A DNA stretch of 63,263 nucleotides, counting the filler, from Stramenopiles sp. TOSAG23-6 (taxonomy: Eukaryota), in NCBI GenBank assembly GCA_900128565.1. It is 5 parts of 5 records of this genome, joined end to end, with 100 filler letters (N's around TTAATTAATTAA, not from the genome) between each part and the next. Parts side by side here need not be neighbours in the genome. Positions count along the whole stretch, not along the records: positions 25,433 to 38,027 come from LT636199.1; 4 more parts are not named here. One strand, 5' to 3'. Each line of letters begins with the position of its first letter. Within the stretch, counting starts at the first letter, position 1. A program made the position numbers and the translations under genes. Positions 12,623-50,762 of this stretch are shown here, in pieces. The notes beneath the pieces were generated by a model. It did not search any database. It saw only the letters and a list, made by a program, of their open reading frames with translations, and was not told the DNA's origin.

Positions 12623-12722
12623 NNNNNNNNNNNNNNNNNNNNNNNNNNNNNNNNNNNNNNNNNNNNTTAATTAATTAANNNNNNNNNNNNNNNNNNNNNN
12701 NNNNNNNNNNNNNNNNNNNNNN
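12623..12722. other. Artificial contig linker
   Basis: N44-TTAATTAATTAA-N44. Confidence 0.98.
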
Positions 12723-14331: not shown

Positions 14332-14481
14332 ATCATCACACGTATAATGCCAATAAATAGATTTAAAATATATCAACAAATTTTTGTAATAATTGGTGGC
14401 GAAATTTCTGTAGACCAAGCAATGAAAAGAAGCGTAAATTATTCATGAAATATTTATTTTTTTAAATCTGTCTGCGATGAA

Positions 14482-16026: not shown

Positions 16027-16288
16027 AACGAGCAATCAACTCAATATCTTATACAATACTTTATTTCTATCACTCACTACATTTTTTTGTGAAAGCATAT
16101 TCCTAGATCCATTTATAATNATGACGACACATAGCTACTCAAATTGACTTACCTATGCTANTAGCTATANGTACTATAAGCATCCTAATAAATAACCGTT
16201 ACGTGAATTAATTCCAACATGTAACTGTTTCATTTCGAACACTGCGTTCCACTTTGAATCATTTTCTCTTTATTAATTATTAATAAAG

Positions 16289-19200
16289 ATGCAGAGAGAG
16301 ACACTATACCACGTCGAAGATGTCGGGAAACTTCTATTGAGTGTTGAAGAGGAGTTGAAAACATTGCGAAGGCAGCTCAATGAGAAGAACGACAACCGTG
16401 ACTCTTCAGCTTCAGCTGACCAACTCATTCGAAAAGCTGAAGCTGAACTTCGAGCAAAGGCAAAGATAGTATTGAAGGCTGTAACACAAAACTCAATAAG
16501 TACATTACCAACAATTCCCAGTGCAAGTAGAAGTGGTCGGTCAAAATCANAGAATCGATCAAATCAACGGCCCGTGGTGTATAGACAGAAACTGAGAACA
16601 AATACTGACCTAGAAGAAGAGATGAGTCAAAACGCAACTCGGGATCTTGCAAATATACAGAGACCAGGAAAGAGTGGTGAGATTGGTAAATTAATGTTTC
16701 GAGAAAAGTATGGCATCCATATTTCCGATAGTCCAACACAGAAAGTTGAGAAAATTAAACATCATGTTGTCGCAGCCCGTCGTCGCAAAGTAGTCGCGCC
16801 CATTAGGAGAATTGGGCCAACAGTTCGAGGTAAACCGTTGCCACCAGAAAATCGCACGAATGCGAAAGATGCACCTGCATTGCCTATCACTCAAAAAGAT
16901 ATTAGTAAAGGAATGTTTTCATTAGTAAATCGTGGAATTTTACCAAAAGCTGCTGATTTGACCCTAGCATTTTCCCGTGGTCCTGCACCACTAATTGCAG
17001 GTAGTATGACATGCCATGATTGGCAATCACAGTTTGAGCCAAGAAATTATAAAATTCCACATACAAGACGATCTACTTTTAATCCGCATACAGTCAAGTT
17101 AGATGTGAACCAATCTGTATTATCTCAGCGACGAGGGAAGAAAAGTACACAAAGCTTTCTTCAAAGTAAAAGTGCTCAGCCGAGAGTTGTTCAAATTGGT
17201 CATGAGCTAATCTCTAACCATACCATTTCTAACGAAAGTCAGCTGGAGAATCAAAATAATATGACCCATAAAACAAATAGAGGGCAATATGAAACGATTT
17301 CAAGTGATGAGAGTGGCGAAGCTCCTAATTTTGTTGATGAGATGGATCGTATAAGAGGATACAATGAATTGTTGGATAAACATTCACTTCATCAATTTAT
17401 AATTCGGAAAGGAAAAGTTTTGGATTCAACTCCAGAATTCTTATCATTCAAACGTACGCATGCTGTGATATGGGGACCCATTATAACCATTATTAGAAAA
17501 TTAGAAACTTATTTAGGTGACTATGCAGTACCAATAGCATATATAGATGGCCGTTTAGTTGTTGAACTAGCAAAAGATGAATTAAATATTCCTAACAATG
17601 ATGATTTATTAATGTGTATTGAAAATGTAGATGAAGTTCTTCCTTTGTTACAAATTCCAGGAAGAAGATATATGGGATCAAGTGGTCAAGAGGCTGCAGC
17701 GACAAAGTTACAATCGAAATATAGACAATATAAACAACANTGTTCCTTTAAAAATGGACAACTAAGAAATTCTGGTGCCGAAATTATTATCAATTTTATG
17801 CGTATGGTGTTAGAACGAAAACGATTTGTTAAAGTTGCCGCAGAATTGATGTCAACTCGCCAAGCAAAATGGCAAAAGTTACAGGAGAACTTCAATGCCA
17901 ACTGGGATACCATCAAAACCCATCGTAGAGTTATTGTTCACATTCCTTCTCTTTCATTATCCGAATTTCAACGAACAACTTTACCTCATTTTGCTTTACA
18001 ACAAAATTCACAACTCTCACGGATACTTGAAATTGCCGATCCAAATGTAGAAGTTGTGTATGTAGCCCCATTTGAGTTGAAGGATAAGATCCGGCAATAT
18101 TTAGATAAAATCCTACAGAGTGGTGAAGTACAAACCCCTGGGCTACGTTTTAAAATTGTAGTACCCGAAAATTCTGAAAGATTTTCACCATATATGTCTC
18201 TATCAACACAACTATTATACTCTCCTAGAACAATTAAAAGAATTAAACATTATTGTAAAGGAAAAAGAGGATATATAGTACCACGTGTTGTAAGCATTGA
18301 AGAAAAAAAACTTGCACTTTCTTTAGACCTCCCAATTCTTGGATCATCACCAGAAGTATTTGAGTTATACTCTTCTCTTTCAGGAAGTAAATCCATTTTT
18401 AATGCTGCAAATGTTCTAACAGCTCCCGGGGCACACGATATTTACGACGAGGATGAAATTTTACTTACTCTATCCCACTTGATATCAGCTGAACCTCTGA
18501 CTGAACGTTGGCTAATAAAACTTAATCATGAAACCGATGGCCGTGGGTACGCATACTTTACTCCTGAAATTTTACCCTGTATATACAAAATTCGGATGGA
18601 ATACCGGCAGCACAAAGATAATAAAGAATATTGGTCTCGCGTTAGTATTCAAGAAAGAGTACAAAATCGAATATTTAGGGATTTAAAACTGAATCTATCA
18701 AAAACATTAAAAATTTGTGCTCCTCAAGTATATTCAACATATAAAGAGTTTATCGGTTGGATTTCAGTCCATGGGTGTGTTGTAGAAGGTATACCTGGAA
18801 CTGTAATCGGCAACCCTACAGTGAATATATTTNTTGAACCTTCAGGACCCGTACATGTTCTGAATACACATGAGTTGGTTTGCGATGAAAAATATCAGCC
18901 AGTTCTCTCAATATTTCCACAGCGATCCGTTCCACATGAAGCAATTCATAGAATAGCAAAGTCTATAGGTAAAGTTTTGCGTGATCGCAAAGTATTTGGA
19001 TATGCTCAGGTAAAGCTTGTCGCATTTCAGCTACAAGAGGAGAAATTGAGGATGTGGGCTGTTGGATTAGAACTTGGATATTCACGCACTCATGCATCTT
19101 TTGCAACTTTTAATTTTTTAATGAAAGGACAATTTGATTCTCTAGGAGGTAGATATTTAGTACCTTCAACACAAGGAAATAACACCAAATACCATGATAA

Positions 19201-19657
19201 TATTTCAAACGAAGATGATAAAGATAATAGAGAAGAAAATGAAATTATTAGTAAAGAAAGAAGAAGCAATAATAAACAATGGGAACCGAGAACGTATGCT
19301 TCTGTTGATATTTTATACCACCAATGTCTTACATCTGTACGATTTGATACATTTTTCGACCAATGTAGAGTTCATGGCGTATCTTATGATTTAAAAGATC
19401 GTAGTGGGTGTATATTCTCTTTGTATGATTCGCTAGCATCCGGAGTGTTGGGAATACACACTGTGGCACCACGCCGGAGACTTGCACTGGACATAATGCG
19501 AAATGCTTTCATATTTATTAGACGGCAGATTGGAGGAGGGAGACCCAAGACAGAGTTTGAGGATGAAAGCAGTAACTTTGAGAGATCTCAGAGGCAAGTG
19601 CGTTTGATATTGAAAGAATATAAGGACACAGAGGATAATAAGAATAGCACATCATAG
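16289..19657 (+). CDS. IQCH: IQ motif-containing protein H-like
   Basis: IQ motif AATKLQSKYR and the VIVHIPSLS...DPNVEVVYV block. 1122 aa, intronless. Confidence 0.8.
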   Translation: MQRETLYHVEDVGKLLLSVEEELKTLRRQLNEKNDNRDSSASADQLIRKAEAELRAKAKIVLKAVTQNSISTLPTIPSASRSGRSKSXNRSNQRPVVYRQKLRTNTDLEEEMSQNATRDLANIQRPGKSGEIGKLMFREKYGIHISDSPTQKVEKIKHHVVAARRRKVVAPIRRIGPTVRGKPLPPENRTNAKDAPALPITQKDISKGMFSLVNRGILPKAADLTLAFSRGPAPLIAGSMTCHDWQSQFEPRNYKIPHTRRSTFNPHTVKLDVNQSVLSQRRGKKSTQSFLQSKSAQPRVVQIGHELISNHTISNESQLENQNNMTHKTNRGQYETISSDESGEAPNFVDEMDRIRGYNELLDKHSLHQFIIRKGKVLDSTPEFLSFKRTHAVIWGPIITIIRKLETYLGDYAVPIAYIDGRLVVELAKDELNIPNNDDLLMCIENVDEVLPLLQIPGRRYMGSSGQEAAATKLQSKYRQYKQXCSFKNGQLRNSGAEIIINFMRMVLERKRFVKVAAELMSTRQAKWQKLQENFNANWDTIKTHRRVIVHIPSLSLSEFQRTTLPHFALQQNSQLSRILEIADPNVEVVYVAPFELKDKIRQYLDKILQSGEVQTPGLRFKIVVPENSERFSPYMSLSTQLLYSPRTIKRIKHYCKGKRGYIVPRVVSIEEKKLALSLDLPILGSSPEVFELYSSLSGSKSIFNAANVLTAPGAHDIYDEDEILLTLSHLISAEPLTERWLIKLNHETDGRGYAYFTPEILPCIYKIRMEYRQHKDNKEYWSRVSIQERVQNRIFRDLKLNLSKTLKICAPQVYSTYKEFIGWISVHGCVVEGIPGTVIGNPTVNIFXEPSGPVHVLNTHELVCDEKYQPVLSIFPQRSVPHEAIHRIAKSIGKVLRDRKVFGYAQVKLVAFQLQEEKLRMWAVGLELGYSRTHASFATFNFLMKGQFDSLGGRYLVPSTQGNNTKYHDNISNEDDKDNREENEIISKERRSNNKQWEPRTYASVDILYHQCLTSVRFDTFFDQCRVHGVSYDLKDRSGCIFSLYDSLASGVLGIHTVAPRRRLALDIMRNAFIFIRRQIGGGRPKTEFEDESSNFERSQRQVRLILKEYKDTEDNKNSTS

Positions 19658-19727
19658 TTCAAATAATAAAATGATATTGAAAATACGATATTAGTTATTT
19701 TTATGGAATTGAGTGAAGTTATATTTA

Positions 19728-21761
19728 TCAATAAGTATTTAGGTGTTTTTCAATATGCATTCTTCTCCTATGACGAGCTTTCCGTAATACTTCCCGCATC
19801 TCAGATAAATGATTATCTATTTTGATCTTGTCAACATTTCGATATTCTTCGTGTATTCGAGAATAATCTATCTTGTGATGATGTAACCCAGTAACATTAA
19901 CAGGATTGACACCTCCGTCTTTTACAACATCTTCTCTAAACGATGTTTTCCCGGAAACATTACTGATTTTAGTGGGGCGATCACTATTGTTTGATCCTCT
20001 TCCTTTCGCTCTTAGAGACCTCATTCTTGGTGTTGCAAACCTATTACGATTACTGACTCCAAGGACATTACCATGATATGTGTGGATTTTCCTGTCAAAC
20101 CGAAATCTGCTTGATTTAGACTTTAAATAATTTACTTCTTTTTTATCACTATTTGTATCATCATTTAAAATGTTGGCTCGCTTAAGACCCAAGAGAGTAT
20201 TTGCCAGGGCTATATTGGTATTTGCATAACTATTTGTATCGTTTGCATTACTATTTTCATTATTATTGTCATCATTAACATTGTCATTATTATTATTATC
20301 ATCGTTATTATTATCATTGCTATTATTATCATTATCATTATCATTATTTTTGACATTAGAATTACCATCATTTTTATTAGCATAACTATTTGTATCGTTT
20401 GTATTACTCTTTTCATTATTATTGTCATCATTGATATTATCATTGTTATTATTATCATTGTTATTATTATCATTATTATTGACGTTAGAATTATCAACAT
20501 TATTATTAGCATCATCATTTGAAACGTAAATATTTGTCTTAGTCAAGTTTGATTTCATTTTGAACGGTTGAGATTTGTAATCAAGTGTCAAATCTTCCTG
20601 ATGGTCCCATAAAATATCTCCATCTAATTCAATTTCTGAGTCAAAATCCACAATATTTTCTTGATCTAATTGCGAACTCTCTCCGACAAACATTGCAAAT
20701 TGTTTTCTTGCCAAGTTTAGTGCGTCTTTCTTTTCTTCTTCATTTTGAAGGGGTTTATCTGTAGTATCAGTAGTATCTGTAGTATCTGTAGTATCTGTAT
20801 TATCTGTATTATCTGTATTATTTATTTGTAAACATTTACCTGACATTGGCTCTGATATTGATGATATTTTTTGTTCGTTAATTTTTTTACTGCGGCTCTT
20901 TCTTCTTAACTCACTTAATTGAAGCCCTAGTTTATGTTTTTGTATGGCATAAGGCGACGGTCTCGGAGGCGGACACGGTGCCAACTTTGCAGTCGACTTT
21001 TGAATGTGTTGTGATGTTTGTGGTGGCGGAGGGGTGATTGGTGGAGATATTTCACTAAAATCTTCTTTTATTGTACCATTGTTTTTTTTCTGATGTTCCT
21101 GTAAATTATTGATTTCTTCCATTTCGCTGCCAGAATTTGATATTGTTTGAATTGTTCGGCTTTTAGATGTAAACGNTGAATTTTGTATTGGTTTATTCTC
21201 TGTTTTAATTCTGCGTAGAGAGACACTATTGATTAAACTATTCATCGTCTGTTGNGTCTTTTCTTCAGGAGTNTGNACTTTGGTTCTTACATCTATTTGT
21301 TTAAAATCTACGGTGCTATCGTTTGATGTACCCGCCTTTAACATCAAATAGTCCTCCCATTGCTCTACACTATACTCTGCAATACCTTTTGCAGTATTAT
21401 AACACCTAGCCGCGTGATATTGCAGTTCATTCTTTGGTAGAGGGAGCTTTCGTAGACGAAGTCTTTCAGCGAACTTTTTCCGACGAAAGTTCTCTTCACC
21501 AGCTCCCTTTGAAAGCCATTTTGGTGTTTCACTTTTATCAAAATCTTCGTCTTCATCTTTTTTTGTGGTACTATTTAGCTTTGCATTTATAGTAATAGTA
21601 TGGACATTAACTAAATGATGGCTATCCTCCTCGCCAGCACCAGATATTGCTGACATTGTTACTGTATGAGGGGCCACACTTATACGGTTACCTGATACGC
21701 TCCGCTTTTTCTTCAACTTTGGTCGACCCCAGAACTTCTCACCAAATATTGTGAGTGACAT
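19728..21761 (-). CDS. Hypothetical low-complexity (Asn/Asp-rich) protein
   Basis: Long ORF with NNND repeats and TDT repeats. Confidence 0.7.
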   Translation of the reverse strand: MSLTIFGEKFWGRPKLKKKRSVSGNRISVAPHTVTMSAISGAGEEDSHHLVNVHTITINAKLNSTTKKDEDEDFDKSETPKWLSKGAGEENFRRKKFAERLRLRKLPLPKNELQYHAARCYNTAKGIAEYSVEQWEDYLMLKAGTSNDSTVDFKQIDVRTKXXTPEEKXQQTMNSLINSVSLRRIKTENKPIQNSXFTSKSRTIQTISNSGSEMEEINNLQEHQKKNNGTIKEDFSEISPPITPPPPQTSQHIQKSTAKLAPCPPPRPSPYAIQKHKLGLQLSELRRKSRSKKINEQKISSISEPMSGKCLQINNTDNTDNTDTTDTTDTTDTTDKPLQNEEEKKDALNLARKQFAMFVGESSQLDQENIVDFDSEIELDGDILWDHQEDLTLDYKSQPFKMKSNLTKTNIYVSNDDANNNVDNSNVNNNDNNNNDNNNNDNINDDNNNEKSNTNDTNSYANKNDGNSNVKNNDNDNDNNSNDNNNDDNNNNDNVNDDNNNENSNANDTNSYANTNIALANTLLGLKRANILNDDTNSDKKEVNYLKSKSSRFRFDRKIHTYHGNVLGVSNRNRFATPRMRSLRAKGRGSNNSDRPTKISNVSGKTSFREDVVKDGGVNPVNVTGLHHHKIDYSRIHEEYRNVDKIKIDNHLSEMREVLRKARHRRRMHIEKHLNTY

Positions 21762-24851: not shown

Positions 24852-25274
24852 TTACAAATTCAATGAATTAAAATGTCCGATTTCTGCTCCCTTTACACCA
24901 ATGTTATCCACTTTGTACAATCCTCCAGCTCCAGGATGAGAGACACTTAATTCATCGCCATCCGTCCAGTATTCTCTAGCTGTGGTGATATACAGATCAT
25001 GTATTTTGGAAAAATATTTCAAAAAAAAAAAATAATTTTTGTTAGGTACAAAATTTCGTACGAAAAATTCAATTTCAAATTTAAAAAAAAAATAAAACAT
25101 ACATTTAGAGACGGTCCCCCGAATGCAAGTAATGTGAAAAATATTTTTTTTTTAGTCAAAAACAATTCATTAGGTACAAAATTTTCATAGTAAAAAAAAA
25201 ATTGAAATGAAAAAGAAGAACGTACAACGGCGGTGGTTTGAGGCCCAGCTTCGACAGGCAATTCAACAACACTT
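24852..25274 (-). CDS. SMP-30/gluconolactonase family, 3' part; exons 25274-25226, 25126-25103, 24998-24852
   Basis: Spliced product VVELP..QTTAVAFGGPSLNDLYITTA..AGGLY. Confidence 0.88.
24999..25102 (-). mobile_element. Introner-family intron, GT-AT, 104 nt
   Basis: AAT|GTATGT...CAAAATACAT|GAT. Confidence 0.88.
25127..25225 (-). mobile_element. Introner-family intron, GT-TT, 99 nt
   Basis: GTT|GTACGT...CACATTACTT|GCA. TT is duplicated at both ends. Confidence 0.85.
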
Positions 25275-25332
25275 AAGTATTTTGGAAAAATATTTGAAAA
25301 AAAAAACGTTAGGTACAAAATTTCGTACGAAA
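25275..25332 (-). mobile_element. Introner-family intron, partial, ends in TT
   Basis: TTTCGTACGAAATTTTGTACCTAAC...CAAAATACTT|AAGT. The contig breaks inside it. Confidence 0.8.
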
Positions 25333-25432
25333 NNNNNNNNNNNNNNNNNNNNNNNNNNNNNNNNNNNNNNNNNNNNTTAATTAATTAANNNNNNNNNNNN
25401 NNNNNNNNNNNNNNNNNNNNNNNNNNNNNNNN
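25333..25432. other. Artificial contig linker
   Basis: N44-TTAATTAATTAA-N44. Confidence 0.98.
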
Positions 25433-25434
25433 CA

Positions 25435-26446
25435 GGTTTGCCTCATTATGGACATATTCTTGCTGGAACTATTAAAGATACTGTGACTCGGTACGCTCAC
25501 CAGACAGGTCACCATGTCAGTCGTCGTTTCGGTTGGGATTGCCACGGTTTACCTGTTGAACACGAGATTGACAAAAAGCTCGGTATTACTGGTCGTGACG
25601 ATGTCTTGAAAATGGGAATTGATAAGTACAATGCGGAATGTCGCTCTATTGTTTCCAGATACACTTCACAATGGGAACAAGTTATTACGCGCTTGGGTCG
25701 TTGGATTGACTTCAAAAATGACTATAAAACATTAGAGCCATGGTTCATGGAGTCTGTTTGGTGGGTCTTTAAACAACTGTGGGAGAAAGGTCTTGTATAC
25801 CACAATCCTACTCTTACATATGTCCGTATTAAAGATATCAAAACAAACTCTATATGGATTTTAGGTAAAGATCGTTTGGTCCAAGTCTATCCTAAAATGT
25901 TGGATAAAAAAGGAAATCCGTCTAAAAAATTCAACGTGAAAGAACATTTCGAAATTATCAAAGAATACGTTGGTAAAGACTTAGAAGGTATTCGATATAA
26001 ACCATTATTTGATTATTACATATCACGTGCAGAAGCACCTCGAAATAATTTTCGTATTCTTGTCGATGATTACGTAACAAGTGAAAATGGTACTGGTGTT
26101 GTTCACCAAGCTCCAGCATTTGGTGAAGATGATTACCGTGTTTGTCAACAATTTGGAATTATTGATAAGATGGTGTTTGAAGACCTCCCCTGCCCAGTTG
26201 ATGCAAATGGACGTAGTGAAAGAAGCTGATAAACACATTTGTAAAGCACTGAAAGAAAAAAAACGCATGCTTATTCATTCATCGTTTACACATTCATATC
26301 CTTTCTGTTGGAGATCAGATACTCCTTTAATCTATAAAGCAGTGCCTTCTTGGTTTATTCACGTGTCTAATCCTGAAATCAAAGAAAAACTGTTGAGGAA
26401 TAATGACGTCACTTACTGGGTTCCTGAACGTGTGAAGACAAAGTAA
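25435..26446 (+). pseudogene. IARS1: Isoleucyl-tRNA synthetase fragment with internal deletions, frameshift and truncation (pseudogene or misassembly)
   Basis: PHYGH (HIGH motif), FGWDCHGLPVE, GTGVVHQAPAFGEDD, HSYPFCWRSDTPLIY. Lacks the WTTTPWT segment and the KMSKS half. Confidence 0.75.
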
Positions 26447-26534
26447 AAATTCTCAAACAAATTCTGATATTAAAAAAAAAAAAAATATTTTAAATGGACC
26501 TATTTTAAATTCTCATACAAATTGTTTCAGCAAT

Positions 26535-27271
26535 ATGGAAACAACACCAATTGAATTAGACAATAGCAAAGGTTGGCAGATTGTTGGTAAGAAAGTTGTA
26601 TCAGACCAATGTGTCACGAAATCAAAAAATAAAATCAAAAAAATGAATACAAGCAAAACAGTAAAAAAAACTACAGAAAAAAAAACAAAGATAAAACATG
26701 ATTTCACAAAAATGAATGAAAATTCCCACCAACAAAAGCAAACAACAAAAAAGAGTTTTTCTTCCTGTGTAAAGGACATTCCAGTGAATATAAAAATTGT
26801 AAATGGCCGATCAAATTGTAAAACAGAAATCCAAAAAATCAAAAAAATCAAAAAAATCAAAAATATCGAAAATATCGAAAATATCGAAAATATTCAAAAA
26901 TCAGGAGTAAATAATTTTAGTGTAGGGAAAAATATGACAACTTCAGCTTCCTTATTATCATATCTACAAGAGGAAATAGACAATCGCTCTGTCGCCATTG
27001 CTGCTGCAAAATTAACACCAGCAAATGTTTGTGGTGTTGGTTTAGAACAGTTGAGTGTAACACAAATGGATATGTTTGTTTTATTTTTTTTCAATTTCGA
27101 ATTTATTTTTCGTACGAAATTTTGTAGTTAGAATGGCTGCATATTGATTCCTTGAAACGTGTTAGTGCTCGCCGTATTAAAGCGGCTAAATTATTAGAAA
27201 GAATGAAAATTGAAGAAGCGATGTCAATTCGTCAAAATATAGCAAACTTACAAGGAAGTCGTAGTATTTAA
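26535..27271 (+). CDS. Hypothetical Lys-rich protein; exons 26535-~27073, ~27127-27271
   Basis: LEQLSVTQMDM continues as LEWLHIDSLKRV across a truncated family intron. Confidence 0.55.
27074..27126 (+). mobile_element. Truncated introner copy (3' half missing)
   Basis: AT|GTTTGT...TTTCGTACGAAATTTTGTA, then exon sequence resumes. Confidence 0.65.
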
Positions 27272-27331
27272 ATATATTTTAATCTTTTCAAAATAATATA
27301 TGTTATTTATTGTCATTTGATAAAAAATAAT

Positions 27332-29980
27332 TCATTCATAATCAACTTCGATACTATCATCATCATCGTCAGCTTCAGCATGACTCATGTCACTTTTTAC
27401 TATTACAGCAGGATTTTCGTTTTCCTCTTTAATTTCTGTGACGTTTGGTTTTGCATCTTTTGGTTTTGAATCATCATTATTACTGTCCGATACAACATTC
27501 GAATTACAATTTGATTCATCATTGTTATTTTTTACACTTTTTGTTTTTTTCCATTCAAGTAAAATGTTTTGACCACGAAACAAATTACCGAATTTCATTG
27601 CTTTTTCAGCTTCCCAACGATTTATATATTTCACATGAGCGACTCTGTCTTTAATCTCAACTTGAACCGTACCAAACGCACCAAAATGTTCTGCAATAAG
27701 TTCTTTACTAACATCAGTGTCAAAATTTGTCCATGTCATTTCCGTAGGTCGAAGATCCAAAGATTTGTATGACTTATAATTTCTCCCTCTTCCTCGACCT
27801 CCTCTTCCTCGGCCTCGGCCTCCTCTTCCCCTACCAGATAGTTCCCTTTTGGATGCCAGGGTTGAAGAAGCTACTGCATTTAATTCTTTAAGTGTTTCCA
27901 TTGAAACTTGGATTTCTTTCATTAAAGCTAATATTTCTTTTTTTGGAGCTTTTTTTGATGACATTTCAAAAAGAAGATTTTTTTGATCTTTTAATTTCTT
28001 TTGAATTTCAGATCTTTTTTTTGTCTGATCAGTATGAAGAGCGAGCTCTTTTTGTGCTCTGATAATATGTTTTGGTATTATTTTACTTTTTTGAGACTTT
28101 TCAGGTTGAAAGTCATCAGTTTGTGATTTGCTATTTTGGTTCATAATTCTAGCATTTCGTTTTTTATCTTTTTCTTGTTGTTCTTTCACTGCATATGTTG
28201 TGAATAAATATTAGCACAGTTTTAAAATTTGTTAAGTACAAAAAAAAGAAATTTGAATAATACATTTGAAATGAATGATGATGCAAATGTACATCTACAA
28301 ACATTAAAAAAAAACGGGTTTGTTTAGGTACAAAATTTCGTATGAAAAAAAACATACATGTTGTTTATCCATAGTATCTTGAACTTCAGCATTTGGTGCT
28401 TCGTCTAAATCACCAAGTTCTGTTTTAGCCCACGAAACCTATAGTATATAGCATATGCAAAATTGTATTTAAATGAATAAAAAAATGTCAACACAAAATG
28501 AAATATAATTGAACAATAGAAATATAATTGAACATAATTGAACAATAGAAATATAATTGAACAATAGAAATATAGAAATATAGAGCATCAGAGTTAGTAC
28601 ATTTTTCATAATGTTTCTTTTTTTTAAGATCACATTTGCTCAAATGACACGCACTATAGTTAAATCAGGGCTCTATTCATCAAAAGACAAATTCATAAAA
28701 ACAAATACAAATTCATAAAAACAAATTCATAAAAACAAATACAAAAAAATACAAAAAAATACAAAAAAATATTTGATGCTATAAACAAAACATACAGTAA
28801 TGAATCGATTATTGCATACCGATTGAGGTGACTTGAAGGCTCTTTCTGCCCCAGCACGAGACTCAAATTGAATGTATGCACACTTCGATTTTGGTTTCAT
28901 TTGGACATTAATGACATTACCAAATTTACCAAAATGAGCACATATTTTACCCATATTTACATACTTTGGGTCTACTTTTCTACATAGCAAAGTTGTTATA
29001 GTGTTTGAATTGGTTGAATATTGTTGATTATGAGATTTAGGATATGAGTCATTTCCAGTTCCATCACTTTCACGTCGCAAATTATTTCTATTATAATGCG
29101 TACTAGGGTTAGGGCTGTTAGAGTTCAAATCTCCACGTTTTGCAAAATTAGGTTTACGAAGGTCTTTTTCTCCATGAGCCCAGTTACAGCGATTCTCGAA
29201 TTTACAAGATCCTGTTCTTCTGTAATTATCACATAATTTTGTTTTGTAAAAAACTTCACCAGAAGGAGAAAGAGGAGTGTGTCGTCTGAAATCAACAGAT
29301 TGAGGAGAACTTCTGAATTCTCTGTTCGACTCTCTAAAACCACTAGAGTTAGGGTTAGGGTTCTCTCTATAACCACTAGAGTTAGGGTTAGGGTTCTCTC
29401 TATAACCACTAGAGTTTTGAGAATATCTGTTTGGTACATTTCTACCATCATTTTTGGGACATTGCTGCCAACCATTATCATTTCTATCATTCGTACGACG
29501 TCGTTTTGAGTCATGATATTGAATATCACTACCAGAAGGACGAGATTTGTTTCCCCAATCCACACGTCGTTTGTCCATCCTAGACCTCCTATGATATTCA
29601 TCACTCATTTCATTGTCATTTCTCCGCGTGCGCCGATAATGATGTTCATCCTCGTCATCACTAATATGTCTACTTCCCTGGCGTACTGGATGTCTCGTAT
29701 CCTGTACACGCGACGACGTTCCACCATTGACTCCATCAAAAAAAGCTCGAGTGTCCATCACATTGAATAGTAAGTCAACAAAAGATTCCACGTCTTTGTT
29801 TTCCATAAATGGTTTCATATTTACAACACAATGTTGCTTATGCTCAACAATCGGTAAATCCTTTTGTAAAAGTTTCAAAGTATATTCAGAAAGTACTTGA
29901 GTGTTTTCCACACCGATTACGTTTAATTGATACACCAACCACTTCAGCAATGGGTCTTCCCAATTCTTTTCGACCTTCAT
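27332..29980 (-). CDS. RBM26: RBM26/27-like RNA-binding protein (PWI, CCCH, 2 RRM); exons 29980-28796, 28438-28358, 28192-27332
   Basis: PWI-like N-terminus, YKTKLC..C..C.WAHG, RRM ending NNRFIT|VSW, RGG stretch and a second RRM. Confidence 0.85.
28193..28357 (-). mobile_element. Composite (double) introner intron, GT-AT, 165 nt
   Basis: CAT|GTATGT...two GTACYTAA cores...CACAACATAT|GCA. Confidence 0.65.
28439..28795 (-). other. Canonical GT-AG intron, 357 nt, containing simple repeats
   Basis: ACT|GTATGT...CTATAG|GTT. Restores NNRFITVSW. Confidence 0.85.
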
Positions 29981-30395
29981 TGAATAATCTTGGTATTACA
30001 CTATAACAAAATATGTAATCCTCTGCAAATAATCTCTGCCGCTAAAGATTGGACAATGAATCCACTTTCCTTTTTTCTAGTAAGAAGACAACGCGCACTC
30101 GAAAATACCCGAGTATTTTAATAAATGTGGAGAGGACGACGACTACTGGTGCACTACTGGTAGTAGACTGGTCACACGATCAAACCTGAGCTGACTGACA
30201 ATATATACACTACACGAAATCGGGAGCTTTCTAGGTACTACTTATCATCCATTCAGCTCTAAAACGATGCACGAATGTCTCACTAATCTTGCTTCAACTG
30301 AAATTACTAACAATTTGCTTCCATTTGTAAATTTGTTAATTGGTATGAAATTTTCAATGAAAAAAAAAATCTATAAAAAAAAAAAATGAAAAGTT

Positions 30396-32811
30396 TCAAC
30401 TATCATTTAATTTAATTCCTAGTCTATCTTTAGGCAAAAAAAGTATTGTAATGACACCTCCAAGTATATACATCATAGCAAATGTACTCATGGCTAAATC
30501 AGGATTATTCTTCATTAAATAACCGCCAATAGGAGGACCCAAAGCACCCAATAATCTTGAAGAACTGACTCCCAAGCCAGCAGCGGCAGCACGAATACTT
30601 GTAGGATACGCTTCGGCAGTAAAGACCATCATTGGAATCCACACCCATGTATTGTGAAAAAAAAAAATTATAAAAATTTGTTAGGTACAAAACTTCGTCC
30701 GAAAAAAAATTTAGAAATTCAAAGAATAAAACAATAAAAAAAAATGAAACATACATGTCCCAAATCCTTGGACGCTTCCTAATGAGATACAAATCTGTGG
30801 GAAATTATATCCAATGATAACACCAAATGTTGCAATTCCTGCACCAAAAAAGCCAATATAAACAAATATTTTTCTTCCCAATTTATCTATTCCAACAGCA
30901 CGTATTGTAAAAATATATTTCTTTTTTTTTTTGAAAAGATCGTTAGGTACAAAATTTCATATGAAAAAAGAATAAAAACTCCAATTCTGAAAACGTACAC
31001 ACGAAAGTGTAAATATTATATCTGCAATTTGACCTGATGCGCAAATGTAAGCTATATCTAATTGATTCAGTCCCTTCTGCTTTTCTAAATAAGTAGGCCC
31101 AAATGCTCTAACACCTACTGTCGGAAATCCCACTAAGCAAGTTATCAAAACAATTATTACTGTAATATATACATAGGGAGGTCGGTATGGAGTGTGAAAA
31201 AATATTCCTTTTCTTTTTAAATCGTTAGATACAAAATTTCGTATGAAAAAAAAAAGGTAAAAAATTCAATTTTGAAAACGTACACAATTGCACAGGAAAT
31301 GCTTTTCTCAGCCAATCAGTATTTTTACAAAACCAACGCATTTTCTTTGGTTGATGTTGGTGGCGGTGTTGGTGTTGGCGTTGATGGTGTTGGTGGTGGT
31401 GTTGATGGTGTTTGTGTTGATGGTGTTGATGGTGTTGGTGGTGCTGGTGGTGTTGGTGCAGGTGACTCGATTCTATTTCATGACTTTCGGTTGTATCATC
31501 ACTACTACTATTAATTGGTCCATTTTCTTGATTGTTTTTCTTTCTATGTCGTCTTCGCCTGAGAAGACTTGATTGTTCATTTGCTTGACTAGTAGATGTA
31601 TCTTGAACAAATATAATTCTTTTTAGTAAAAAAAATATGTTAGGTATGGAATTAGGTACAAAAAAAATTGAAATTTTGAAAAAAAATGTTAGGTATGGAA
31701 TTAGGTACAAAAAAAAATTGAAATTTTGAAAACGTACACATTTTATCTAGTGGTATTAAGTGTAGTTGACGAAGATCTTCCATTTCTTCAGGTGTTACAG
31801 GATTTCCATTCATTTTACGAATTGAAATAAGCGTTTTTATTGCTCTCTTTGTTTCTCCGGCGAATATTAAATAACGTGGAGATTCGGGTAAAAAGAACAT
31901 CATGTATTTTGGAAAAATATTTCAAAAAAAAAACACTAAAATTTGTTAGGTACAAAATTTCGTACGAAAAACTTTCGAATTTGAAAAAAAGTAAAACATA
32001 CATACAGACACATAAACTAAACGATGGAATTGAAGTGACTAAGACACAAACTCTCCAATTAGGCAACATATAATAACTAACCATGTTGGCTAAAAGTCCA
32101 CCAACTGGCCAACCTAAACGTGTCAAAACCATAATAGCTCCACGTGATTGAATAGGGAAAAATTCAGCAGACATGCTTAATCGAACAGGGCGTTGTAACC
32201 CAAAAGAAACTCCAACGATAAAACGTAAAATCATCAGCTCAAGCCAATCTCGTGCGAGTGCACACATACCTCCAAAAATAATAATGCCTAGAAAACCAGA
32301 ATATAAAAGTGGCAACCTTCCTATTCGATCACATGTGCTGGAAGACATATTTCAAACATTTGAAATTCGTTAGGTATGAAATTGTAGGATTTTCTATGAA
32401 AAAAAAATTTGAAATTTGTCATGGAAACGTACACACTGGGCCTGCAAGTAAAGAACTAAGTGCAATACCAACACATCCAGCTCCGATAATAAGTCCATTT
32501 GAAAATTCAGTTGTTCCGAGATCTTCTTCGAATCTGGTAAACAGAAAGGAATTTATTTCAAAGAAGAGACCATCGGATAGTGCGACGAGCGTAAAATATA
32601 CAAAGCAAAATACATGAAATATTCCAAATTCCATAGTTTCAAACTTGTCTTGAAAATCTCTCAATCGTTGAGTATTTTTTTCTCTCCCATGGAAAGAAAT
32701 GCTATCTGCTGATGTGTCTAATGAAGTTTCCATATCCTCGTCAGAGCTCTCTTCGGGTACGAAGCAAAAGTCACAGCAACATGAAATTCCCGAAAGCTTC
32801 TCGGCAAACAT
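30396..32811 (-). CDS. MFS transporter (SV2/SVOP-like), 7 exons: 32811-32433, 32332-32002, 31901-31738, 31595-31284, 31186-30999, 30899-30755, 30646-30396
   Basis: CDRIGR, LRFIVG, AEFFP..RG, LPESPRYL, IDKLGRK, TAEAYPT.IRA. All exon phases are consistent. Confidence 0.92.
30647..30754 (-). mobile_element. Introner-family intron, GT-AT, 108 nt
   Basis: ACAT|GTATGT...CACAATACAT|GG. Confidence 0.85.
30900..30998 (-). mobile_element. Introner-family intron, GT-GT, 99 nt
   Basis: TGT|GTACGT...TACAATACGT|GCT. GT is duplicated at both ends. Confidence 0.85.
31187..31283 (-). mobile_element. Introner-family intron, GT-AT, 97 nt
   Basis: TTGT|GTACGT...CACACTCCAT|AC, giving QLYRPPY. Confidence 0.75.
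31596..31737 (-). mobile_element. Introner-family intron with internal tandem duplication, GT-AT, 142 nt
   Basis: ATGT|GTACGT...(GTACCTAATTCCATACCTAAC)x2...CAAGATACAT|CT. Confidence 0.8.
31902..32001 (-). mobile_element. Introner-family intron, GT-AT, 100 nt
   Basis: AT|GTATGT...CAAAATACAT|G, giving MMFFLPESP. Confidence 0.88.
32333..32432 (-). mobile_element. Introner-family intron (diverged), GT-AT, 100 nt
   Basis: GTGT|GTACGT...CCAGCACAT|GT, giving GPVCDRIGR. Confidence 0.82.
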
Positions 32812-33124
32812 CTGATTCAGAAGGAACGAAAAACTACAATACGGATGAACTTTCGAATCGAAATTCTGCTAACGTCACAAGAAATAACGATGGATAATAA
32901 TTGTGACTACAATGGCTCCACTTTCTCCTTTAACACGCAATCATATACACACTGAACAACAAAATTTAAAAATTTATTTAGAATGATATGAATGAAAAAG
33001 TTGAAATGAAAAAAGGTTTCGTTCAGGGGACATTTTTGATGATTTTTGATTTTCTTCAACAAAAACTGAGACAAACCTGCTTGTAGGCTACATTTTTTTG
33101 ATTTTTCTCTTTTTGTTTGTTATA

Positions 33125-34377
33125 TTATTTTTTTAGTTTCATTTTTTCTTCGTTACAGCGTATAATAAAAGATAAAATATCAGCAGTAAATGCATCAAAT
33201 ACAAGTATGTTGAAAGATCTGTGAGAATGTTCAACAATATATTTCCCAATCTTTTGGTTTAATTCCTTCCGCTTTGTCAAAGCAACAATTCCTGGGGTTT
33301 TACCAAAACCCAAAGAAAAAATATTACGAATTTCTTCTGTCGTAATAATTTTACCATGCATTTGGAAATGTGCTGCTTGAAGACATATCTTATCATATGA
33401 TGGGTCTCTACTTATAGATTCTTCTTCAATACATTTTTTCAGTATTGTGAAAAAATATTTCAATAATTTGAAATTTGTTAGGTACGAAATTCCGTATGAA
33501 AAAAAAATGAATTTCAATAATTTGAAATTTGTTAGCCATAGAAATCTAGTATGAAAAAAAAAAGTCAAAATGGACAACGTACAACTTGTTCCCAACTACT
33601 TTGTTCTCTATTTCCATCGTAACGGCAATCAAAAACGTCTCTTACATGTATTTTGGAAAAATATTTCAAATTGTTTTTCGTTAGGTACAAAATTTCGTAC
33701 GAAAAAAAAAACTTCGAAATTGAAAAAAAATGAAAACGTACATGTATAAAACTGTAGTTCCCTAAATATTGATTTGAAACTAATCCAAGTTGCCACTTGT
33801 TCTGAATACATGTTTTAATATTTATGTTTGCTAAATTTTCTGAATTTGGAATAGCAATATCTGAAAATATTCGTATAGCATTCATAAAAGTTCTGGAGTC
33901 TAATTCAACTTCAATATCATCTTTTCGTGCAATACCAAATTCATCAAATTTAATTATGATAATTTCTAATGGATTTTCATGTAAGAAAGTCCGAATAACA
34001 TCAAATGCATCATATATTGTTGGATATGTGAACCAAACAACACCGTGATGAAATGTTGGTATTTGGTCTACAAGAGGTCGAAAGTCAAGATATCTTACTC
34101 CAGATTCTAAAAGTTCTTTCAATGAAAGCGACTGTGTAATTGACCAATTTAAGTATTTTCGTTGTAACCATCTTTGTTTTACTTCTTTTGTAAAACTATC
34201 ATGGACATTTTTTATATCCCATTCACCACTGATGCTATGATGAGTTCCTGGTAATACAATATCTTTCAGTTTTCTAGAGGTCCAAAGGGAACCAAATGTA
34301 TTGACCATTTCTTCCATCCATCTCTTTCCATTGTATGCACCTTTAGACTTTGGGATAGAATCATGATTTTTAGACAT
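33125..34377 (-). CDS. PI-PLC X-domain protein (PLCXD-like); exons 34377-33742, 33645-33583, 33439-33125
   Basis: LPGTHHS, WSITQ, GVRYLDFR, FLHENPLEIIII, C-terminal FNILVFD. Confidence 0.88.
33440..33582 (-). mobile_element. Introner-family intron with internal duplication, GT-TG, 143 nt
   Basis: GTT|GTACGT...CACAATACTG|AAA. Confidence 0.78.
33646..33741 (-). mobile_element. Introner-family intron, GT-AT, 96 nt (3n, stop-free)
   Basis: CAT|GTACGT...CAAAATACAT|GTA. Confidence 0.85.
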
Positions 34378-34594
34378 ATTTCATTTGGTTCAGACAGTGC
34401 CAATGTTCTACTTTCTTTGCGGATACATTATAATGGATTATTGAAAAATACTATTGTGGTAAAGTTTGATACTACCATACTTGTACCAAACTTGTGTAAA
34501 CTCATAATTTTAGGAGCCGCAGTTTTTTGTCCGTTAAAAAAATAATCTCAATGTTGTAGTACATACCCAATTAAAGAAGACAAAGAATAACGTT

Positions 34595-35251
34595 ATGAAG
34601 ACCATTGTTTTATTTGCCCTTTTCATTTTATTTTCTAGCTCATATTCAGTTAGAAAGTTTCGAAAAGAGCTGAAAAACAGACTGGCGCTCGATCAAAAGC
34701 ACAAGTTCCACTGCAATATCGACAACCTTACAGAGAAATCAATATACTGCAAAGGCATCATTTTCAGGTATGATGAATCTAGACCACCAACTTGGATGAA
34801 TTGGGCTCGAAATTTTGCAGCAAGTTACGGGGGTCAAGAATATGCATATCATCACTACATTTGGTTCCCGGACCAACAATGCAGCATAGGACTCCACAAA
34901 GTTTCAACAGGCAAAGAACCCGTCATGTCTACTCCGGATGTATACAAGTCCGGTGTATGTTATGAGCCGGATCCCAACGACAGTACCTCGATGAGAATAA
35001 AAAATATTTGCACGGATTGCACTTGTGGATCTGAATGTGGTGGACTTTCATTTGAAAGAAAGGTACTTGGCAAAGAACGATTGGAAATTGTTCAGTTGCT
35101 CAATGATTGGGAAAGCAAAAGGGTCAAAAAAAATAGCAAAACAACTGGAAAGATTGTTTCAATTGAAAACCAGAAGTCCATGCCTGGAGTCACTTTCAGC
35201 TATGGCGCTGGCTTTTCTATGAAATTTGATGATTTGAAAGATAATGCTTAA
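34595..35251 (+). CDS. Secreted Cys-containing hypothetical protein (in-frame continuation to 35515 beyond one TAA)
   Basis: Signal-peptide-like N-terminus; 218-aa ORF. Confidence 0.65.
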   Translation: MKTIVLFALFILFSSSYSVRKFRKELKNRLALDQKHKFHCNIDNLTEKSIYCKGIIFRYDESRPPTWMNWARNFAASYGGQEYAYHHYIWFPDQQCSIGLHKVSTGKEPVMSTPDVYKSGVCYEPDPNDSTSMRIKNICTDCTCGSECGGLSFERKVLGKERLEIVQLLNDWESKRVKKNSKTTGKIVSIENQKSMPGVTFSYGAGFSMKFDDLKDNA

Positions 35252-35610
35252 TTTCATTTCGGTAGGTATCTACTATCGGACCGGTACATCTTTGATCCTG
35301 TCGGATACGTTGGTGCTTCTAGTCGTGGTGAATTGGACGAGTATAACCCTTATATCACTCCTTCTATTGAAGAGACCCGAAGGATAAATCTTTCTAAAAT
35401 GACTTCTTATAGTTGTCAGGCTTTTGTGAGAATGTTCGTGGAATACCCTGAGATTTTGTACCACACATTTGTTCCTCAAGAAGAAGGTGAAGGTGAAGAT
35501 GACGATGAAGAATAATAATCGTATTCATTATAAAATGATTCGCAAATTCGATAGGTAATAATGAGAATACAAAAACAGAAAAGGATATTTAATTCATTAT
35601 AAATCAGTTC

Positions 35611-37974
35611 TCAGTTTCCTAAATTTCTTTTCTTTTTCAATGAATTATTAGATGAATTTTCATCAATTTTGCGTTTTCTACTTTCAGAAAAATCATGTTG
35701 AATCAATTTTTTGGCAACGCTAAACGGAATATCTAAACCTACATGACAACGAGTGATACCTTGCTCAAAAGAGGAGCAACGTAAAACTTTAATGCCTTTA
35801 TTAACATCATGAAATGTTTGCCGATACGCTTCTTGAATAGTTGCCCATATTTCTATAATATTACCACACAAAAGTGAATGTGTCTCCATTCGATTTTTAT
35901 ATTTGCTAGTACAAGGTCTGGTACCTGTTTAGTGAAAAAATATAATATACATTTAAAATACATTAGGTATGTATAAAAACGACTTTTAAAATTGTAATGA
36001 AATGATGAAAATNTACATGGTATCGTTCTACAGGTTATACATTGACCGCAGTTATCTTGAGTGGTGACGTCATCATCATTAAGTGAGACACGTCCCGCTT
36101 GGGAATGTTGATCCATCCAAAGTTGGCGAATATTTTCAATTTCATGGAATGATGAATTACGGTGATCTTTTGCTTTACAAGATTTTGTTGAAAGTTGAGT
36201 TTGAATATTTTTCAAAGTTGGCCGGTCAGTAAACTCTGTCTTTGGAAGGTTAGTATTGGAGATTTGTTGTACAATCTTCTTGAAAATATTTGGAGCCATA
36301 TTCTTACTACGTTTGTGTGGATAATACACTGTAAATTGCGTATGTTGAGGAAATCTTGACCTTTTAGATAACTTGCGCTCAAGTTCTTGTGAAGACATTT
36401 GTTCTAGCCCCTGAGGTAAAACTTCCATAAATAGCATGCACTCACGACGCCGAGAGCCTTGTCGGGGAACCCAACTGTAAAAACCATCATGAGAACCAAA
36501 AAACTTGTACGAATGGGATGCTCGACGTAAAACATTTCGACCACTCCAACCATCAATTTGTACATTATTATTTACATCATCACCAATGATATTCATTCTT
36601 TTTTGTTTCAATCGAGTCATACGAACAATACGATCTTTTAACAAGTTTTCAGCGGATTCAAAAGATCGGCCAAAATCAATGGAACATTCAACAACTTCAG
36701 CACAAACACCTTCATCGTTTGTTTGAATTATTTTAGGTAATTCGCATTTATTAAGAAAAAATATTTGGAAAAAAAAATCGTTAGGTACGGAATTTTCTAT
36801 AAAACAAAATATTTTGACATTCAATTCTGAAAACATGCATAATTTAACACTCGTTGCGCCAAGTTGGACTGCTGATTGAACACCTGGATTCCAAGTATCT
36901 AACATTTTTGCTTCATCCACTTTTTGTTTGTAGCAAGCAAGAAATGCATCAAATATATAATTTTGCCAAGCATAAGGGTAATTTAAAACACGATTAGCAA
37001 AACCTTTGAAAGTGTCCCATTTTCGTAAACCTCCACCACCATAGCTAAGTTTTCCTATAATACAAAGTATGAATGAATTAAGCTTTTCTATTTTTAAATA
37101 ATCAATATCCTCATCATCCTCATCCTCATCACCTGATATACTCAAATCAATATCGTCTTGACTAAAATCAGGTCGATTGTATTCTAATATTTTTTGTACT
37201 CCAGACGCAAGATCCTCAGCTAAATTAAGAAATTCATCACTTATACTTACATCCCACATATTTTTAATTGTACCATCAGCAACACATGGTAACATCAATT
37301 CACCTGAAAATTCTTCTTTATCATTCTTATTTTGTAATTCTTGAGCAACAGTACCAAAATTTTCTTCACATTGAAATTTTCTACTATTTTTACTTATAGC
37401 TCCTCGTAAATCATTCAGAGCTTGAATACCATACTCATTTTGCCAGTTCATTTCTTCAAATAAACTACGACCTTTCTTATGCTCGCCACCAGCAAAAGAA
37501 GCAGAACGATCGCCACGTGTCAATGCTCCTAAAGATTCAAGTCGTGATGTAACTGCAGAAACAAAACGTTTCTCGCCACCTAATTCAGTAACAAAAACTT
37601 TATACATAGGCGGAATGCGTTGATTTGTTCGATGTACTCGTCCCATCATTTGTAATGCAGCATCAGCAGCCCATGGAAGTTCAAGTACAATGTTTACATG
37701 TAATTTTTGGAAAATAATTTTTTTTTTGTACAATTTGAAAGATTGTTAGGTACGAAATTTCGTACGAAAAAACAATGTAGAAAAAAAATTGAAAAAAAAA
37801 ACGTACACGACGACGTTGGCCAGCTATAGGATTATTGCGTTCACAATGCATTGAAATACCAGTTGCAGCAGCACTTGATATTATTGCGACGAATTTCTCA
37901 CCTCTTTGAAATGCTTCTTTTTCTTCTGCATTACTTAAATAGCGATCTTCTAATCTTAATTCATTCGTCACAGC
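35611..37974 (-). CDS. SBNO: Strawberry notch-like helicase, 3' part; exons 37974-37807, 37697-36839, 36745-36017, 35924-35611
   Basis: AIISSAAATGISMH, QRRRV..LELPWAAD..LQMMGRVHRTNQ, GGEKRFVSAV..RLESLGALTRGDR. Confidence 0.92.
35925..36016 (-). mobile_element. Diverged family intron with canonical GT-AG ends, 92 nt
   Basis: CCAT|GTANAT...TACCTAAT...ATATTTTTTCACTAAACAG|GT. Confidence 0.75.
36746..36838 (-). mobile_element. Introner-family intron, GC-AT, 93 nt (3n)
   Basis: TTAT|GCATGT...CCGTACCTAAC...CTTAATAAAT|GC. Confidence 0.72.
37698..37806 (-). mobile_element. Introner-family intron, GT-AT, 109 nt
   Basis: CGT|GTACGT...AAAATTACAT|GTA. Restores QRRRV. Confidence 0.9.
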
Positions 37975-38027: not shown

Positions 38028-38127
38028 NNNNNNNNNNNNNNNNNNNNNNNNNNNNNNNNNNNNNNNNNNNNTTAATTAATTAANNNNNNNNNNNNNNNNN
38101 NNNNNNNNNNNNNNNNNNNNNNNNNNN
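38028..38127. other. Artificial contig linker
   Basis: N44-TTAATTAATTAA-N44. Confidence 0.98.
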
Positions 38128-39457: not shown

Positions 39458-40872
39458 ATGGCCATATTTGTTTTAGCACTAACATTCCTATTGTGTAGAT
39501 ATAGTTTGGTATCATCTAATATGGTATCGAAAGACATCATGGATAACTCTACAAAAGCTTTAACTTTGTACAATCCTGGAGCCGTTCTAAAAAAGTTGTA
39601 TTCACCTGTTGTTGACTTTAATTTTGCTGAAATATCTGGAAGTTTCATTGTGAAAATTAAACAGAATATGAAGGGAAAAGGAACGGGTTCAGCTTCTTGG
39701 GATGGTGGGTCCGCAATGGCACACTTAATTCAGAATCCTGATATACTTTTACTTCCACCAAATAGAGGAGGAATTGACTGGTTTCCGTTAGGGTTAGAGT
39801 TAGATGAAACAAACAAAACGGACATTTCACTAAAACAGCCTTTACCTGTAAAACAAGATTGGAATTGGTTAGGAAAACGTGTTGTTGAATTGGGTTCCGG
39901 TCTTGGATTAGTAGGTTTAGTTGCAACTATGCTTGGTGCGGAGGTTTTATGTACCGATGGAGACGAAGAGACTTTAGAAATTGCCGAGAAAAATATAAAA
40001 GATAATATCTCACGCTTTAAAGCGCAAAACGTAGATAATAACGTAGATAATATTGGACAAGCTCATGTTTCTGCATATGCATGGGGATCTGAACCAAATG
40101 CAATGTTAGAAAGAGCATTTGGTTTTGCATATAATTCAGAAAAAATGGAAAAGCTAGGAAACCCTGACCCTAACAAAAATAATATTTATCCTGATGTTGT
40201 AATCGCAGCTGATGTGATTTATGGTGGAAATTCTGAAGCTTGGCACTTATTCATTGAGTCTCTTGCGGCTTTATCAGGTCCAAATACGGTTGTTTTGTTT
40301 GAAATTACAGAGAGATATGCCCGGGAGAAGTATTTATTTATGAAGAATCTTGGTCGACCCGGTAGAAATCATAACGGTTGTACGTTTTCATCATGAATTT
40401 TCAATTTTTTTTTTCATACGAAATTTTGTACCTAAGATTTTTTGTTTTGAGTTTTTTTTCGATACGTTTTTCATCATGAATTTTTTACCTACATTTATTT
40501 CATACGAAATTTTTACCTAACGAAACATTTAAAAAAATGAAATATTTCTTCATATGCATGGCACTCGAGGCGAATTTCTAATGACCTACTACACCCTGAA
40601 TTCCAAAACTCACGTGTGAGTATGTATGTTTTAATTTTTTTTAAATTTCGAATTTATTTTTTTTATAGGAAATTTTGTACCTAACAATTTTTTTATGATT
40701 TTTTTGAAATATTTTTCCAAAATACATATATCAACTGACAAAAAAAAATGGAAGTGTGATGAACGATGAAAATACTAATGGGGAATGTTATGTTGGACGT
40801 TTGCACAAAAAAATCACAAAAGAACAACAACGGATAAAAAAACAAGCTTACGAAAGAACTCTTCAATCCTGA
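39458..40872 (+). CDS. METTL21-like (family 16) protein-lysine methyltransferase; exons 39458-40379, 40560-40623, 40728-40872
   Basis: GTG...WDGG, VVELGSGLGLVG, DVVIAADVIY, and spliced LLHPEF...SIYQL. Confidence 0.85.
40380..40559 (+). mobile_element. Tandem double introner intron, GT-AT, 180 nt
   Basis: GGTT|GTACGT...(TACGTTTTCATCATGAATTTT...CATACGAAATTTT..ACCTAA)x2...ATATGCAT|GG. Confidence 0.75.
40624..40727 (+). mobile_element. Introner-family intron, GT-AT, 104 nt
   Basis: AT|GTATGT...CAAAATACAT|A. Confidence 0.85.
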
Positions 40873-50662: not shown

Positions 50663-50762
50663 NNNNNNNNNNNNNNNNNNNNNNNNNNNNNNNNNNNNNN
50701 NNNNNNTTAATTAATTAANNNNNNNNNNNNNNNNNNNNNNNNNNNNNNNNNNNNNNNNNNNN
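50663..50762. other. Artificial contig linker
   Basis: N44-TTAATTAATTAA-N44. Confidence 0.98.

Follow-up and report, generated by a model that had tools for sequence, protein, structure and literature searches.

Candidate introner-like introns with non-AG 3' ends in a predicted transporter gene of Stramenopiles sp. TOSAG23-6

How can a gene that is interrupted six times by inserts without a terminal AG still encode an intact protein? AG at the 3' end of introns is among the most constant signals of eukaryotic genes, with few genome-scale exceptions (Fritillaria, Amoebophrya, euglenids). The question is raised by a locus on the minus strand, at 32811-30396, of a stretch of DNA of 63,263 nucleotides (nt) from Stramenopiles sp. 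TOSAG23-6 (assembly GCA_900128565.1), the whole of which is called the window here. An earlier note had proposed that seven exons at this locus join into one uninterrupted frame of the major facilitator superfamily (MFS), and that the six inserts between them end in AT five times and in GT once. Both proposals were reproduced when we rebuilt the exons by script from the window: exons of 379, 331, 164, 312, 188, 145 and 251 nt give a joined frame of 1770 nt, with 589 codons (a product of 589 aa) and a single terminal stop. Judged from the sequence, the seven exons probably form an intact gene whose product is an MFS transporter of the sugar-porter/SLC22-like group, and the six inserts are probably introner-like spliceosomal introns, drawn from one repeat family of about 95 nt that serves as the introns of this compact genome. 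The predicted gene is laid out as follows.

32811-32433, minus strand: exon 1, 379 nt; ATG at 32811; 3' end in phase 1; the homologue P0003 aligns gap-free into exon 2
32432-32333, minus strand: intron 1, 100 nt; GTACGT...ATACCTAAC...CACAT; holds an out-of-frame AG 5 nt from its end
32332-32002, minus strand: exon 2, 331 nt; MFS motif-A region through transmembrane segments 4-6 (TM4-6)
32001-31902, minus strand: intron 2, 100 nt; GTATGT...GTACCTAAC...ATACAT
31901-31738, minus strand: exon 3, 164 nt; PESPRYL-type motif; Sugar_tr profile positions 188-218
31737-31596, minus strand: intron 3, 142 nt; GTACGT...ATACAT; a 49-nt tandem unit inside
31595-31284, minus strand: exon 4, 312 nt; central loop
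31283-31187, minus strand: intron 4, 97 nt; GTACGT...GTATCTAAC...CTCCAT
31186-30999, minus strand: exon 5, 188 nt; junctions 4 and 5 are free of insertions and deletions (indels)
30998-30900, minus strand: intron 5, 99 nt; GTACGT...GTACCTAAC...ATACGT; the one GT-ended insert of the gene, preceded by an exon that also ends in GT
30899-30755, minus strand: exon 6, 145 nt; MFS_1 profile positions 56-98
30754-30647, minus strand: intron 6, 108 nt; GTATGT...GTACCTAAC...ATACAT; no AG from the branch box to 30 nt inside the exon
30646-30396, minus strand: exon 7, 251 nt; TGA stop at 30398-30396; MFS_1 profile positions 102-177

The six inserts are uniform in their signals. Their 5' hexamers are GTACGT (four) or GTATGT (two), their 3' tetramers are ACAT (four), CCAT (one) or ACGT (one), and every one of them carries an [AG]TA[CT]CTAAC box at 34-44 nt from its end. 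Intron 3 is longer than the other five because of the tandem repeat inside it, a 49-nt unit present in 2.1 copies with 96% match at 31630-31732. By inspection, introns 5 and 6 (99 and 108 nt, both divisible by three) hold in-frame stops and therefore cannot simply be read through.

The assignment to the MFS rests on matches to the MFS_1 and Sugar_tr profiles in both six-helix halves and on a full-length product that is colinear with 30 homologues. Exon 2 gives the strongest Pfam matches (MFS_1, E=1.2e-12; Sugar_tr, E=3.2e-8, profile positions 71-186), while exons 3, 6 and 7 give weaker ones that are colinear with MFS profiles. The solved structures nearest to exon 2 by sequence are SLC22A6, OCT and URAT1 (E ~1e-5), with no SV2 entry among those listed, and most sequence relatives of the transporter are unnamed or bacterial MFS proteins. 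The nearest relative is P0003, which shares 57-58% identity with exon 2 and 52.5% over 160 aa of the joined product. Two further features were observed at this gene: the part of exon 4 that encodes the central loop contains a His/Gln-rich low-complexity run with 6-, 9- and 15-nt periodicity (31350-31464, minus strand), and just 3' of the stop codon, in the same orientation, lies a weak partial match to the repeat family (30317-30367, minus strand; nhmmer E=0.042, profile positions 28-79), possibly a degenerate copy in the 3' untranslated region.

Whether the joins hold can be read from an alignment of the in-silico product with the 30 homologues, which were chosen from about 180 proteins as the closest fragments together with full-length matches. 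Junction 1 rebuilds the GxxxDRxGR motif exactly and is gap-free against the homologues that cover it, P0003 included, with the exception of P0073, which has a one-residue gap just upstream. At junction 2 the product is indel-free against P0034, P0041, P0125 and P0073 and one residue longer than the bacterial set, and the Pfam coordinates run on without a break, exon 2 stopping at Sugar_tr position 186 and exon 3 beginning at 188. Junctions 4, 5 and 6 show no indels against the homologues, and the coordinates are again continuous over junction 6, from MFS_1 position 98 at the end of exon 6 to 102 at the start of exon 7. Junction 3 falls in the variable central loop and is uninformative on indels. 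The junction indels for which the earlier note had suggested looking were thus not found at the five informative junctions. Its further argument, that six in-frame joins are unlikely by chance, is borne out by a probability of (1/3)^6 = 0.0014.

A conventional reading of the same DNA would be that ordinary GT-AG introns have been placed in the wrong register, or that the locus is a pseudogene broken by insertions of miniature inverted-repeat transposable elements (MITEs). We searched for canonical alternatives among donors up to 45 nt on either side of the family donor and among acceptors in a span that opens 60 nt ahead of the family end and closes 45 nt beyond it. Introns 1, 3, 4 and 5 do have some in-frame AG options, which speaks for such a reading, and intron 3 alone could take an AG 6 nt upstream without visible harm, in the variable loop. 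For intron 1, however, the nearest GT/GC-AG option inserts one residue within the conserved motif; for intron 4, the options are changes of at least 18 nt; and for intron 5, they shift the length by at least 6 nt where the family register leaves no gap. The in-frame, stop-free options of intron 6 are deletions of at least 36 nt only, and intron 2 has no in-frame, stop-free GT/GC-AG option within the searched range. Nor does a broken gene fit well with six of six inserts that restore the frame and with MFS motifs kept without indels. For this gene, canonical GT/GC-AG splicing cannot replace the exon model.

The earlier note had also held that the inserts are precisely removed and are not gene-killing MITEs. 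Precise removal agrees with our analysis: an MFS protein would need the inserts to be removed exactly at the family register, because the junctions are indel-free and the GT-AG alternatives fail. The choice between introns and MITEs is a false one, as the family copies resemble a mobile repeat with a second role as intron.

The same repeat occurs far beyond the transporter gene. A window-wide nhmmer search, with a profile seeded by five of the six introns of this gene (intron 3 was omitted because of its duplication), found full-length copies in other genes, with E-values down to 3.6e-13 outside the seed. The curated set comprises 28 copies with both ends and one AG-ended copy, 29 in all. In 26 of the 28, the shared register joins the longest upstream open reading frame (ORF) to the longest downstream one (P=7e-11, with a chance of 1/3 each), so that the argument from in-frame joins holds for the family as well. 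With the same pattern repeated in so many copies and many genes, we regard the pseudogene, or the misplaced GT-AG introns, as scarcely credible.

Among the 29 copies, the 5' dinucleotide is GT in 26 and GC, AT and GG in one each, and the 3' dinucleotide is AT in 24, TG in two, and TT, GT and AG in one each. The copies without GT at the aligned 5' position are 50231-50330 (minus strand, ATACGT), 36746-36838 (minus strand, GCATGT) and 50999-51097 (plus strand, GGATGT). Of the 29 copies, 22 close with CAT or TAT, and 19 are preceded by an exon with AT at its end. Of 25 aligned copies, 23 have CTAA[CT] at the aligned position, followed by a T-rich tail; where the box is correctly located, 34-48 nt separate it from the intron end across the family. 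Two features of U2-type introns, the 5' GT hexamer and the branch box with a pyrimidine-rich tract, are therefore present, while the third, the 3' AG, was found in none of the six inserts of the transporter gene and in one of the 29 copies in the window. Conservation is highest at the 5' site, in the branch region and in the 3' tail, and the consensus 5' end is GTAYGTTTT. Pairwise identity reaches 85-89% in the best pairs, which lie in different genes and contigs, and its median is 68%, as compared to 56% in shuffled controls. Many similar copies thus stand in sense orientation as introns of unrelated genes, as introners do. Their density is very uneven: the 1.8-kb coding sequence of the transporter holds six, and the first 25 kb of the window hold few.

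We recognised no non-family intron in the window, where matches of a regular-expression scan were judged to be due to chance; this was not an exhaustive annotation. We consider the chances about even that nearly all introns of the host derive from a single introner family of about 95 nt and are spliced at a non-AG site (...ATAC+NT, usually CAT|). An Rfam scan of the window gave no match, and the 22-nt branch block had no match in viral contigs.

Every one of the 29 copies runs in the same direction as its host ORF (P=2e-9 if orientation were random), and this bears on the level at which the inserts would be removed. They might be cut from DNA, like the internal eliminated sequences of ciliates, with the window representing a germline-like form; when both cuts are slid by one base to a TG...CA register, the ends together with the short flanking repeats do resemble excision pointers. 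DNA excision, however, would have no need of a strictly sense orientation, nor of the 5' splice hexamer and branch box that the copies bear, and we know of no nuclear dimorphism in stramenopiles. We take excision from DNA to be very improbable, and removal from RNA is favoured because of the strict orientation.

The flanks of the copies may point to a short target duplication. In 20 of 29 copies, the exon upstream closes with the same dinucleotide as the intron, as compared to 16.1 expected (permutation p=0.009). A GT-ended exon precedes the single GT-ended copy, and a TT-ended exon precedes the single TT-ended one.

Several observations weigh against the reading of these copies as mobile introns with a GT...AT register. 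In the window, we saw no full copy in intergenic DNA, no antisense copy and no empty site, and the linkage of variants along the element is weak (Fisher p=0.35, 0.057 and 1.0). The terminal inverted repeats are short, about 4-9 nt (GTAT.TTTT / AAAATAC, by eye from the consensus), and tests for flank repeats of 3 and 4 nt were not significant. Two of the 28 copies fail the simple frame test: 25225-25127, where the failure comes from the micro-exons of 49 and 24 nt on either side and the copy is in frame once three exons are joined, and 50330-50231, where the matching frame stays open for only 16 codons downstream. A near-identical spliced protein was not found when protein collections, 50% representatives included, were queried with exon 2 (the best match was P0003), and the contigs of Joint Genome Institute (JGI) metagenomes held no close relative of the transporter, only two distant loci with 25% and 40% identity. 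Our literature search found no precedent for an AU 3' splice site outside Fritillaria tunicates. Finally, the register is not fixable from the frame alone, as shifts of -2 or -1 give the same protein or one that differs by one residue.

The missing intergenic, antisense and empty sites, together with the weak subfamily linkage, would suit the view that the family is not mobile at all and consists of the ordinary introns of the lineage, short and AT-rich, which resemble each other through unusually long splicing signals. The peaks of conservation at the 5' site, branch region and 3' tail would fit this view, and so would the lack of a recognised non-family intron in the window, within the limits of that scan. 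The similarity, however, is full-length and includes a CAATTTCGAA-like block without a known role in splicing; pairs in unrelated genes are 85-89% identical; the 2-nt flank repeat is significant; and the density is very uneven. We therefore consider ordinary, immobile introns rather unlikely, and prefer a mobile repeat that serves as an intron.

For the register, both cuts can be slid by -2 (mostly AT...AC) or by -1 (TG...CA) with the frame intact and no more than one residue altered. The same removable introns could thus be cut 2 nt upstream, as ATGTAYGT...ATAC, or 1 nt upstream. Because of the 2-nt repeat, the registers come to the same thing in 20 of 29 copies, and at -2 the 3' end would be AC in 23 of 29 (ACAT in 19, ACTG in two, ACTT and ACGT in one each). 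Read in this way, most copies would resemble U12-type AT-AC introns, and ACCTAAC loosely recalls TCCTTAAC. U12-type introns have a consensus 5' box of (A/G)TATCCTT and a branch site near the 3' end, at a shorter distance from the end than the 34-48 nt of this family. Unlike them, the copies have the consensus GTAYGTTTT, and at -2 their 5' end is AT, GT or TT without an ATATCC/GTATCC box; their branch-to-end distance is longer than is usual for that type, and we know of no small nuclear RNA pairing that expects the GTAYGT hexamer at positions +3 to +8.

The sole AG-ended copy also fits the unshifted register. It lies at 36016-35925 (minus strand) in a Strawberry-notch-like gene, reads GTANAT...CACTAAACAG (with an N at 36013), is in frame in the same register, and has its AG at the exact aligned position of AT in the other copies, which supports GT...AT. 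That introns end in AT depends on setting the 5' end at GTAYGT, because the frame fixes only the length removed; we prefer the GT...AT register because GTAYGT then sits at the expected 5' splice site and the AG-ended copy reads GT-AG. Another register for the same introns appears unlikely to us.

From these results we infer removal at the RNA level by the spliceosome, at the GT...AT register, of a mobile element that makes a 2-nt duplication. Each copy would bring a 5' splice site of the yeast-like type, GTAYGT, together with a strong branch box, [AG]TA[CT]CTAA[CT], followed by a T-rich tail that closes 34-48 nt later with ...ATAC and two further bases. These final two bases would be a 2-nt target-site duplication flanking the element GTAYGTTTT...AAAATAC, so that the excised unit would be the element plus one duplicate, with the 3' cut after the duplicated target. 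With a duplicate of AT (or GT, TT, TG), it would be position and not an AG that sets the 3' cut, and the second splicing step may be placed by the distance from the branch point or from the ATAC end, with T (rarely G) at -1. Hairpin-guided removal, as proposed for Amoebophrya or Euglena, is unsupported, because RNAalifold on 25 copies found no consensus pairs.

Known systems share parts of this pattern. Introners of Micromonas have an element that gives one splice site and a duplicated target, of 3 nt, that gives the other (PMC11282704). Like the introners of Micromonas pusilla and Aureococcus anophagefferens, which are MITE-like DNA transposons, the copies in the window are short sense repeats in genes from which element and duplicate would be removed together; unlike those introners, which have canonical splicing motifs (PMC7789003), 28 of the 29 copies are non-AG and the apparent duplication is 2 nt, mostly AT. 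In Fritillaria, a published study reports AT as the commonest 3' end of introns (44% in F. pellucida, 34% in F. borealis), a YAY triplet that forms the last three bases of the intron and is often found also just upstream of the 5' site, and a retained U-rich tract, the introns being removed by the U2-type spliceosome (PMC13326754). The window family is similar in its 3' AT, in the 22 of 29 copies that end in CAT or TAT, and in the 19 of 29 upstream exons that end in AT. It differs from F. borealis, where 5' ends are mostly AG and the termini diverse (PMC13326754), in being homogeneous, with GTAYGT nearly throughout and a strong branch box, and in a host that resembles a stramenopile protist. 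Amoebophrya, likewise a marine protist with repeated non-canonical intronic elements, has non-GT-AG borders and direct repeats of 3-5 nt over the exon/intron boundaries (PMC7789003). Its elements are described there with inverted repeats of 8-20 nt, hairpins and no preferred terminal dinucleotides, in contrast to window copies with uniform ends and no consensus structure. Surveys of introners drop families with unfamiliar splice sites unless RNA data back them (PMC12130899). Our literature search, with term look-ups in four papers on single-cell genomes of marine stramenopiles (PMC5778133, PMC12614181, PMC8163842, PMC5269757), whose PDF supplements may hold intron statistics, gave no report of such introns in this group.

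If the proposed reading is correct, the host would belong to the second lineage, after and independently of Fritillaria, to have left the AG rule throughout, in this case with a textbook 5' site and branch point retained. The 3' "splice site" would then be merely the duplicated target dinucleotide of a transposon. Such a host would be a clean natural case in which to study how the site of the second splicing step is chosen when no AG marks it, and would show introner spread under a tolerant spliceosome. Gene finders that accept only GT-AG would break such genes, so the gene catalogues of uncultured plankton may be systematically incomplete. For example, the transporter has no near-identical protein in the collections, whereas an ORF for EF-1-gamma in the window, which lacks introns, matches with 98% identity a EukProt protein whose source name suggests a marine stramenopile. 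The next named matches of EF-1-gamma are stramenopiles (Chrysoparadoxa, Triparma and Ectocarpus), and family copies lie at 1814 and 2302 on the same piece of the window; the host thus looks like a marine stramenopile. Six DNA and five RNA sequencing runs contain 5-82% of the words sampled from 26000-35999, shares that we take as evidence neither of expression nor of habitat.

Individual copies show further variation. At 24999-25334 (minus strand), three family introns stand in a row with the micro-exons of 49 and 24 nt between them, and two of the introns end in TT. The joined exons give an open frame with a GGPS...LYITTA-type stretch, which we take to recall SMP-30/gluconolactonase proteins; a Pfam search with the 48-aa last exon found no family. 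Three composite copies of 143-180 nt have a duplicated 5' part or branch region, as partial tandem duplications, at 40380-40559 (plus strand), 28193-28357 (minus strand) and 33440-33582 (minus strand), and all three are in frame in the family register. A truncated copy at 27074-27132 (plus strand), with the 5' half as far as the branch region and then ...GTAGTTAGA, precedes the last exon of a gene; with a GT donor, its in-frame acceptors are only TA-, TT- or GA-ended. At 58123-59866 (plus strand), a PRP4-like gene for a WD40 protein of the U4/U6 small nuclear ribonucleoprotein is split by two family introns, one of them TG-ended, and the WD40 repeats resume in the exon after the second insert.

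The window itself consists of five pieces of 12622, 12610, 12595, 12535 and 12501 nt, a chain of separate contigs in order of size and not one locus, joined by 100-nt spacers of the form N44-TTAATTAATTAA-N44 at 12623-12722, 25333-25432, 38028-38127 and 50663-50762. Many single N bases, scattered over the second piece at 13892-21276, break otherwise long ORFs, such as that of an IQCH-like gene at 16277-19657. Three of the four piece breaks fall inside a family copy (partial copies ending at 25275, 37975 and 50609), and the assembly was probably broken at the intron-family repeat.

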